DNA of 51,754 bases from a virus (lineage: Duplodnaviria; Heunggongvirae; Uroviricota; Caudoviricetes): the IMG/VR virus record IMGVR_UViG_2861038214_000004; one strand, given 5' to 3'. The number at the start of each line of letters is the position of its first letter. Position 1 is the first letter of the stretch. The translations under genes were made by a program, and so were the position numbers. The notes under the pieces are model-generated. The model ran no database searches. It was not told the origin of the DNA and saw nothing but the letters and a program-made list of their open reading frames with translations. This document shows, piece by piece, positions 40,001 to 40,987 of the stretch.

Positions 40001-40216
40001 TTAAGCGGCTTTGTGTTCCGGCGGGAACACGTCATCAAGACTGACTTTTGCGCCTAACTTGTTTAGGCACGCAACAAGAGCACGGCATGTTTTAAGGTCT
40101 GGGAAGCGACGACCAGATTCCCAATGTCCGATAGCTCCCTGTGTGCATCCAACTGCCTTAGCAAGTGTTGTTTGAGAGATATTCAGTGACTCTCGATATT
40201 TTCGTAGGTTGCTCAT
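40001..40216 (-). CDS. cro: Cro-like repressor, 71 aa, helix-turn-helix
   Basis: Start at MSNLRKY with GGAGG RBS (track ORF extends further upstream); divergent from cI; HTH resembles that of the adjacent cI N-terminus. Confidence 0.75.
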   Translation of the reverse strand: MSNLRKYRESLNISQTTLAKAVGCTQGAIGHWESGRRFPDLKTCRALVACLNKLGAKVSLDDVFPPEHKAA

Positions 40217-40327
40217 ATGCCCTCCATAGTAAACACGAATAAAAAAATACAATATGTACTTTACGAATACAAGTAAAAATACACATTGTGCATGGATGGT
40301 TCCAGTACAAAGCGTAATAATAAGGAC
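40217..40327. promoter_or_regulatory. OR region with divergent pRM/pR and candidate operator palindromes
   Basis: 111-bp AT-rich intergenic between divergent cro and cI; palindromic motifs TACA-ATA-TGTA and CACA-T-TGTG; motif AGTACATAT(C/T)GTA shared with the region upstream of N. Confidence 0.5.
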
Positions 40328-40987
40328 ATGAAAATGAAATGGTATGAACTGGCTAGATCCAGAATGAAAGAGCTCGGCATAACTCAAGAGAAGTTAGCCG
40401 AAGAGCTAGGTATGACGCAGGGTGGGATTGGACACTGGTTGCGCGGATCTCGTCATCCATCTCTTAGTGATATTGGTGTGGTGTTTAAATACCTTGGTAT
40501 TGATAACATATCATTCAACCACGACGGGACATTTTCACCTGTTGGCGAATACTCATCGGCCCCAGTTAAAAAACAATATGAGTACCCTGTTTTTTCTCAT
40601 GTTCAGGCTGGGATGTTCTCTCCAGAACTCAGAACCTTTACCAAAGGCGATGCGGAGAGATTGGTAAGCACAACCAAAAAAGCCAGTGACTCTGCATTCT
40701 GGCTTGAGGTTGAAGGTAACTCAATGACCGCACCAACAGGTTCCAAGCCCAGCTTTCCTGACGGGATGTTAATTCTGGTTGACCCTGAGCAGGCTGTTGA
40801 GCCAGGCGATTTCTGTATAGCCAGACTTGGTGGTGATGAGTTTACCTTCAAGAAACTGATCAGGGATAGCGGTCAGGTGTTTCTACAGCCACTAAACCCA
40901 CAATACCCAATGATCCCATGCAATGAGAGTTGTTCCGTTGTGGGGAAAGTTATCGCTAGTCAGTGGCCTGAAGAGACGTTTGGGTGA
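40328..40987 (+). CDS. cI: CI prophage repressor: heterologous N-terminal HTH domain fused to a C-terminal domain identical to lambda CI
   Basis: From [22 protein letters not shown] to the end matches lambda CI; N-terminal ~90 aa unlike lambda or 434 repressor; start set at MKMKW (track start 40286). Confidence 0.85.

Follow-up and report, generated by a model that had tools for sequence, protein, structure and literature searches.

The region around the repressor gene cI in a 51,754-nucleotide stretch of DNA from a tailed virus (Caudoviricetes; IMG/VR record IMGVR_UViG_2861038214_000004; the whole stretch that was analysed is referred to as the window) comprises the gene cro, the right operator region (OR), cI and, further on, the left operator region (OL). 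With a probability of roughly 0.92, it is the primary lambda-style immunity switch and belongs to the type of VT2-Sakai, the Shiga toxin 1 (Stx1)-converting phage, Stx2 II, Nil2 and 2851 (CI clade I, PMC8951638). This immunity type is already known and catalogued, and the module is an ordinary one among the lambdoid phages of E. coli. Compared to lambda, cI is mosaic: its N-terminal DNA-binding domain (head) is of non-lambda type, its C-terminal domain (tail) is of lambda type, and the two meet in the interdomain linker, most probably as the result of an old recombination. The parts of the switch that are needed for the following comparisons are:

40001-40216, minus strand: cro, 71 residues, helix-turn-helix (HTH) protein of family HTH_3 (Pfam, E 4.3e-12), annotated as cro in AP005153, Nil2 and VT2-Sakai
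Between cro and cI: OR, intergenic, 111 bp, tripartite
40328-40576, plus strand: cI N-terminal domain and linker, residues 1-83, HTH_3 head of the VT2-Sakai/Nil2 type
40577-40987, plus strand: cI C-terminal block, residues 84-219 and stop codon, with the cleavage-site region and the S24 autoprotease/oligomerisation domain

When positions 39860-41000 were compared by megablast with a collection of 50,697 phages and records with a query cover of at least 80% were kept, 62 phage records matched the cro-OR-cI block at 97.5-99.6% identity over 1.13 kb. The Escherichia phages 2G7b and PhiR11_1 showed 99.6% DNA identity, and the Stx1-converting phage AP005153, Stx2 II (AP005154), Nil2 (AJ413274), 2851 and the PA-series Stx2a phages 97.5%; FM180578 was also among the 62 records, and VT2-Sakai (NC_000902) showed 98%. 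The CI head was 100% identical in 56 phage records, including Stx2 II, ev017, PA27 and 2G7b. For ev017 and PA27, CI identity amounted to 100% in head and tail each, and CI of the Stx1 phage was 100% identical across 217 aligned residues. The immunity-specific part from cro through OR to the head (40001-40600) was found in 775 of 5426 complete E. coli genomes (~14%, about one in seven), and a near-identical block was already present in phages sequenced 1999-2003.

The same cro, OR, cI and OL are shared by the Stx phages (VT2-Sakai, AP005153, Stx2 II, Nil2, 2851) and by 2G7b, ev017, ev207 and PhiR11_1, from which the window differs in the flanks, i.e. in its lambda-type O and P and in another two-gene cargo between cI and OL. 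The closest sequenced relative of the window prophage is Escherichia phage PhiR11_1, for which a literature search found no paper. Fagerlund et al. 2022 listed AP005153, AP005154, KP682372 and FM180578 as Eru2/Eru3 phages; the CI proteins of these are identical and make up clade I, which of all clades is nearest to lambda CI (PMC8951638). The division of the repressor has been described as well: as summarised by Sedhom and Solomon 2023 (PMC10742460), Fattah et al. 2000 found the homology of VT2-Sakai CI and lambda CI to be high in the C-terminal and low in the N-terminal part, and Villafane et al. 2008 gave ~80% identity to lambda for the tail of the epsilon34 repressor and ~50% identity to L, VT2-Sa and Nil2 for its head (PMC2629481). 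Homoimmunity with phages of the VT2-Sakai/Nil2 type is predicted, and membership in the imm lambda group is ruled out on sequence grounds, as head, operators and Cro are all non-lambda. Few lambdoid immunity types are commoner in E. coli, and the module governs the induction of several Stx1/Stx2 phages, which gives it medical relevance. Identity with the biochemically characterised repressor of BAA2326 (O104:H4) was rejected: its footprinted operators (ATAACTGTGCGTAATG and others) are absent from the window, and P13368 and P8983, used as proxy O104:H4-type Stx2a phages, have a CI tail that is only ~64% identical.

A different explanation would be that the prophage is cryptic and the region has decayed, so that the switch no longer works. 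An IS10-like insertion elsewhere in the window would fit such a state, as would the TAG found in cI codon 31 of the VT2-Sakai reference. Nonetheless, this is improbable, since the window carries cI, cro, cII, N, O and P in intact form, CI is identical to that of the complete-genome phages ev017 and PA27, the cro-OR-cI DNA is 99.6% identical to 2G7b and PhiR11_1, and the six operators and the catalytic residues are all intact.

Residues 84-219 of the window CI are identical to residues 101-236 of lambda CI (mature numbering, NC_001416) in 135 of 136 positions (BLASTP), which confirms the match to lambda CI stated in a preliminary description of this DNA. The C-terminus was assigned to Peptidase_S24 (Pfam, E 1.1e-28), and the tail block matched the solved lambda CI fragments 3BDN, 8GMU, 2HO0 and 1F39 with E-values of 1e-65 to 1e-96; the solved pieces 101-229 and 132-236 both fall within the near-identical stretch. 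The piece 101-229 (PDB 2HO0/2HNF) had been crystallised to serve as a model of autocleavage. Ala94-Gly95, Ser132 and Lys175 align with lambda A111-G112, S149 and K192 and are all retained. Based on the near-identity to lambda CI 101-229, RecA-stimulated self-cleavage and induction would be expected for CI. The sole substitution compared to lambda is W129L (window CI residue 112; 40661-40663). Trp is kept in the 94%-identical E. coli variants AZ146 and CH10508 and in the Salmonella relatives, while Leu at lambda position 129, a residue within the cleavage-site region, is specific to the main VT2-Sakai/Stx1-phage subtype.

For the head (residues 1-83), in contrast to the tail, pairwise alignment with the lambda repressor gave only 17 of 83 identical residues (20%). 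Residues 11-58 were identified as HTH_3 (Pfam, E 1.9e-10). The nearest natural solved structures are N-terminal domains of lambda repressor (engineered 1LLI variant, E 4.5e-4; wild-type 1LMB, E 3e-3); the top PDB match, marginally stronger, is the non-phage 8tac ('DBP48', E 2.4e-4), and the 434 and P22 heads gave weak matches (E 0.25-0.47). The earlier statement that the N-terminal ~90 residues are unrelated to the lambda and 434 repressors therefore stands as to the low identity to lambda but not as to the relationship, as the head comprises 83 residues, belongs to HTH_3 and has lambda structures as its nearest natural ones. The lambda N-terminal arm is missing, and the residues aligned with lambda E34 and D38, the positive-control residues known from lambda genetics, are still acidic. 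The VT2-Sakai reference differs in codon 31, the first residue of the recognition helix, where it has TAG and the window has CAG (Gln31; 40418-40420). Due to this TAG, cI of VT2-Sakai is annotated as two fragments, while cI of the window is intact.

The boundary between the two parts is also visible in the DNA. In a three-way alignment, 390 of 411 positions (94.9%) of 40577-40987 were identical to lambda, compared to 159 of 409 from OR through codon 83, a value that represents alignment noise. The edges of the homology are sharp, with a jump within a few bases at 40577 (TATGAGTACCC...) and a collapse at the stop codon. The 21 differences in the tail DNA consist of 19 third-position changes, one synonymous first-position change and one non-synonymous change. 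Since the conservation of synonymous sites is not explained by constraint on the protein, the tail is a shared DNA module. The joint is located in the interdomain linker, ten residues ahead of the Ala-Gly cleavage site. A comparison of the domains among five repressors gave the following identities:

Window and lambda: head 20%, tail 99%
Window and ST64T/L C2: head 48%, tail 44%
Window and Oslo CI: head 48%, tail 80%
Oslo and S107: head 28%, tail 90%

Lambda-like tails (80-99% identical) are thus joined to at least three unrelated heads, namely those of lambda, the window type and S107. Recombination inside the cI linker, as had been proposed, is well supported by the sharp edges, the two DNA identities and the discordant domain relationships. 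The divergence of about 5%, mostly synonymous, in the tail indicates that the exchange is old rather than recent. The exchange may have run in either direction, and lambda cI is as good a candidate for the derived gene as cI of the window. With the borders at 40577 and 40987, the lambda-homologous tail block is cleanly delimited, which is a useful addition to what is known of this type.

The difference between head and tail could also have arisen without any recombination, if the head had diverged fast under selection for a new specificity while the tail was conserved. Diversifying selection is expected on immunity determinants, and both heads have the HTH_3 fold. However, the synonymous sites of the tail are ~95% conserved, identity falls to noise within bases at 40577 and at the stop codon, the relationships of head and tail are discordant among the five repressors, and the one tail type (80-99%) occurs on the three unrelated heads, which makes this explanation very improbable. 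Least tenable is a previously unseen specificity that would have been newly made when lambda CI received a novel DNA-binding domain: the low identity of the head (20%), the operators unlike those of lambda and the missing close solved structure for the head would agree with it, but the head is 100% identical in deposited phages, the block occurs at 98-99.6% in phages sequenced 1999-2003 and in 14% of complete E. coli genomes, the operators have been annotated since 2003, the mosaic had already been published, and the mostly synonymous divergence of the tail of about 5% points to an old joint. Contrary to the preliminary description, the DNA-binding domain is accordingly not novel; it belongs to a known immunity type, for which putative operators have been annotated.

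In the annotation of AP005153 (2003), OR and OL have three putative 17-bp operators each, and the promoters PR and PRM (rightward and repressor-maintenance promoter) are marked as well. Together with the leftward promoter PL, the corresponding elements in the window are:

40245-40261: OR1, AAATACAATATGTACTT, putative operator in AP005153, 20.1 bits, overlapping the PR spacer and -10
40277-40293: OR2, AAATACACATTGTGCAT, putative operator in AP005153, centre at ~-43 from the predicted PRM start
40303-40319: OR3, CAGTACAAAGCGTAATA, putative operator in AP005153, overlapping the PRM spacer and -10
42513-42529: OL3, AAATACAAAGCGTTATA, putative operator in AP005153
42546-42562: OL2, TACAACAAATTGTATTG, putative operator in AP005153, overlapping the PL -35
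42571-42587: OL1, AAGTACATATCGTACTA, putative operator in AP005153, between the PL -35 and -10
40244-40272, minus strand: putative PR, -35 TTGTAT (40272-40267), 17-nt spacer, -10 TATTTT (40249-40244)
40293-40321, plus strand: putative PRM, weak -35 TGGATG (40293-98), -10 AATAAT (40316-21)
Putative PL: -35 TTGATC (42560-42565), -10 TACTAT (42583-42588)

The predicted PR is consistent with AP005153, where a putative major rightward promoter has been annotated, and the cro ATG is preceded by the Shine-Dalgarno sequence GGAGGG. OR and OL share a 17-bp operator consensus, AAR-TACA-N3-TGTA-YTT. All twelve half-sites have A at position 5 and C at position 6, and 9-11 of them have A, T and A at positions 2, 4 and 7, respectively. 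In a symmetric operator model built from the six annotated sites of the window, these sites scored 14.8-20.1 bits, compared to 11.2 bits for the best unrelated site in the 51.7 kb; seven sites of the window reached at least 14 bits. The lambda operators scored -8.9 to 3.1 bits in the same model. Both the dissimilarity to the lambda operators and an immunity specificity distinct from that of lambda, as stated in the preliminary description, are borne out by these values.

Motifs shared between OR and OL, which had also been reported, are indeed present and exceed chance, with 14 shared 8-mers compared to 2.4 expected from Markov-shuffled controls (P about 5e-4); only one of the two copies of AACAAATTGTATT (at 42403 and 42549) has to be set apart, as it lies in a spacer shared with lambda. 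The 13-mer GTAAAGTACATAT is common to OR1 and OL1, and the palindromes TACAATATGTA (40248-58) and CACATTGTG (40282-90) are found in OR. The bare patterns TACANNNYGTR and WACANNNYGTW are too degenerate for significance across the whole window; therefore, the significance of the operators is derived from their clustering, the 17-bp model and their conservation. For the latter, OR was aligned between the window, the Stx1 phage, the two 94%-identical E. coli variants AZ146 and CH10508, Oslo and ST64T. In these six immunity regions the TAC and GT(A/G) cores of all three OR operators are invariant, while the bases between them vary. OR and OL could furthermore be aligned with the Stx1 phage and Nil2, where OL2 shows 2 nt differences and none of the other five annotated operators shows more than one.

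The distance from the PRM -10 to the ATG is exactly 6 nt in all six of the aligned regions. This conserved distance supports a leaderless cI mRNA starting at 40328 (MKMKWYE...), and this comparative support is a further useful addition. The annotated starts vary between records, as described below, but ATG 40328 is the most likely cI start by this alignment, and TTG 40286 is disfavoured in comparison.

Several observations weigh against a plain lambda-style operation of the switch. From centre to centre, the operators lie 32 and 26 bp apart at OR and 25 and 33 bp apart at OL, compared to 24 and 23 bp at OR of lambda, so that pairwise cooperativity of the lambda kind, with the same tail at these spacings, has to be assumed. 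According to our own counts, the OR spacings of Oslo and ST64T are similar to those of the window, and therefore the geometry travels with the module of head and operators and not with the tail; in the window, the cooperativity and cleavage module of lambda would thus serve a switch with a different operator spacing, which adds to the description of this type. A consensus sigma-70 scan did not flag PR, PRM or PL. As weak consensus matches, the three promoters were placed by homology, position and conservation. Annotated cI starts disagree: the annotation of PGAP (Prokaryotic Genome Annotation Pipeline) and that of AP005153 use the equivalent of 40292, inside OR2, and that of Nil2 uses 40334. 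Finally, no direct data on binding, footprints or mapped transcripts of the cognate repressor were found in the searchable literature, and the electrophoretic mobility shift assays on the six VT2-Sakai operators were performed with lambda CI (Sedhom and Solomon 2023, PMC10742460).

If the switch works in the lambda manner, CI dimers would bind the three 17-bp pseudo-palindromic operators each at OR and OL, and CI on OR1 and OL1 would occlude PR and PL. At OR2, ~-43 from the PRM start, CI would be positioned to activate the weak leaderless PRM, while the overlap of OR3 with PRM would allow negative autoregulation. Cro, sharing the recognition helix of CI, is expected to bind the same operators and thereby to favour lytic growth. 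The lambda-type tail would provide dimerisation, dimer-dimer cooperativity and RecA-stimulated cleavage at Ala94-Gly95 by Ser132/Lys175.

The reported resemblance of the CI head to the adjacent Cro was confirmed with 35% identity over 62 residues (E 1e-12). The recognition helices are near-identical, with TQGAIGHW in Cro and TQGGIGHW in CI, and BLASTP of lambda Cro against the window Cro gave no alignment at E <= 100. Such a similarity of CI head and Cro is usual in lambdoid phages such as 434 and P22, with lambda Cro as the exception; in 434 and P22, a small HTH protein paralogous to the repressor head serves as Cro, and both proteins recognise the same operators. By this comparison, Cro of the window is a paralogue of the CI head in a switch of the 434/P22 style, although the window shows no close sequence similarity to 434 or P22 and their operators are different. 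In the three phages compared, the recognition helices of CI and Cro co-vary within each phage, with the type TQGxIGH(W/Y) in the window and ST64T and the type T(K/R)GAVxH(W/Y) in Oslo.

Compared to lambda, the window shows the same gene order, divergent PR and PRM, tripartite OR and OL and the same predicted leaderless cI start. From residue 101 on, lambda CI is 99% identical to the window, including the cleavage site, the catalytic dyad and the cooperativity surface. In contrast, the operators are of the type TACA-N3-TGTA in the window and 17-mers of the TATCACCGC type in lambda, the DNA of OR and OL cannot be aligned, and rexAB of lambda is replaced by cargo genes. The head belongs to a known family that includes L/ST64T and epsilon34/Oslo and shares the operator core. 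C2 of the Salmonella phage L/ST64T has a nearly identical recognition helix (TQGAIGHW), the Cro helix and the OR layout are the same, and the OR sites of ST64T scored 11.8-17.5 bits in the operator model; its C-terminal domain, however, is not of lambda type, the host is Salmonella and the backbone is P22-like. CI of epsilon34/vB_SosS_Oslo is homologous to the window in the head and in the lambda-like tail. For epsilon34, Villafane et al. 2008 proposed the operator core WTACRAWWTGTAT (PMC2629481), and this core of epsilon34/Oslo is common to the window type. The recognition helix of Oslo differs (TKGAVSHW) and its OR sites scored 4.4-12.7 bits, so that epsilon34/Oslo is probably heteroimmune to the window type.

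Because of the near-identical recognition helices of CI and Cro and the OR sites of ST64T, which reach scores as high as those of the cognate sites in the operator model, VT2-Sakai/Nil2 from E. coli and L/ST64T from Salmonella might form one specificity group across genera and partly cross-repress, a tentative idea that is rather unlikely. If there is no cross-repression, non-core bases or the spacing of the operators must account for the heteroimmunity of the two types.

Left of OL, an additional operator-like sequence was found:

42399-42415: distal operator-like site, CATAACAAATTGTATTT, in the spacer common to lambda, 17.1 bits

It includes the first copy of AACAAATTGTATT (42403-15), which falls in a block homologous to lambda that consists of a terminator and a spacer of about 100-130 bp (42337-42470, corresponding to lambda 35700-35830, downstream of rexB). 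In lambda, the Stx1 phage and Nil2 the same position reads AACCAATTGTATT and scored 12.7 bits; the second exact AACAAATTGTATT of the window is due to one C-to-A change within this spacer. The variant AZ146 lacks the distal block, and its terminator abuts OL3. A fourth OL operator was therefore downgraded as an interpretation, as the block is also present in lambda and absent from AZ146. The distal copy is less likely to be a conserved operator than a near-match that arose by chance and was improved by one substitution, though this high-scoring sequence 114 bp beyond OL3 might serve as an auxiliary site. Homology to lambda is found again at the very start of the PL transcript but not in the operators between the two lambda-like stretches, a joint in the style of that in cI. 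By its homology, the terminator-spacer appears to be a conserved linker flanking the variable rex slot.

The switch is part of a lambdoid early region that sits in the window in inverted orientation. The neighbouring features are:

37933-38634, minus strand: P
38631-39530, minus strand: O
39563-39859, minus strand: cII, 98 residues (Pfam Phage_CII, E 7e-34)
39837-39850, plus strand: candidate -35 region of a CII-dependent promoter for repressor establishment (PRE), TTGC-N6-TTGT, pattern match inside the cII 5' end
41034-42340, plus strand: two cargo genes in the rexAB slot
42346-42371, plus strand: intrinsic terminator, CCCGGC-loop-GCCGGG followed by a T run, from reading of the sequence and lambda alignment
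42778-43050, plus strand: N antiterminator, 90 residues, first gene of the PL operon (Pfam N_peptide, E 3.4e-32)

The terminator was not flagged in a consensus terminator scan of the region. The candidate PRE -35 is suggested by a position like that of lambda PRE, as matches to the pattern occur in the window no more often than expected by chance. The product of cII is itself mosaic compared to lambda CII: its last 20 residues (LTNKKRPAATERSEQIQMEF) show full identity and the DNA-binding part at the N-terminus only weak similarity, giving 43% overall (BLASTP). By this pattern, cII carries another intragenic mosaic joint in the same style as cI.

The two cargo genes encode 180 residues (41034-41576; DUF6978-like, PHROG 2017) and 258 residues (41564-42340; DUF1828, PHROG 1960). 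Both products have weak matches to the two components of PDC-M24, a candidate defence system of PADLOC (A, E 4e-4; B, E 5e-7), and, except for the final 60 bp, no near-identical DNA was present in the 50,697-phage collection. The gene pair probably represents a defence or exclusion moron expressed from the prophage, which lies outside the switch proper and is probably co-transcribed with cI.

The IS10-like insertion is located at 32450-33720. It contains an Rfam match to RNA-OUT (98.8 bits) at 33651-33720 (plus strand), which overlaps the 5' end of an open reading frame of 402 residues (32450-33658, minus strand) with the size of an IS10 transposase. An Rfam match to Lambda_thermo, the cIII thermoregulator, at 44673-44731 (plus strand; 88.5 bits) indicates that the cIII region 3' of N is lambda-like.

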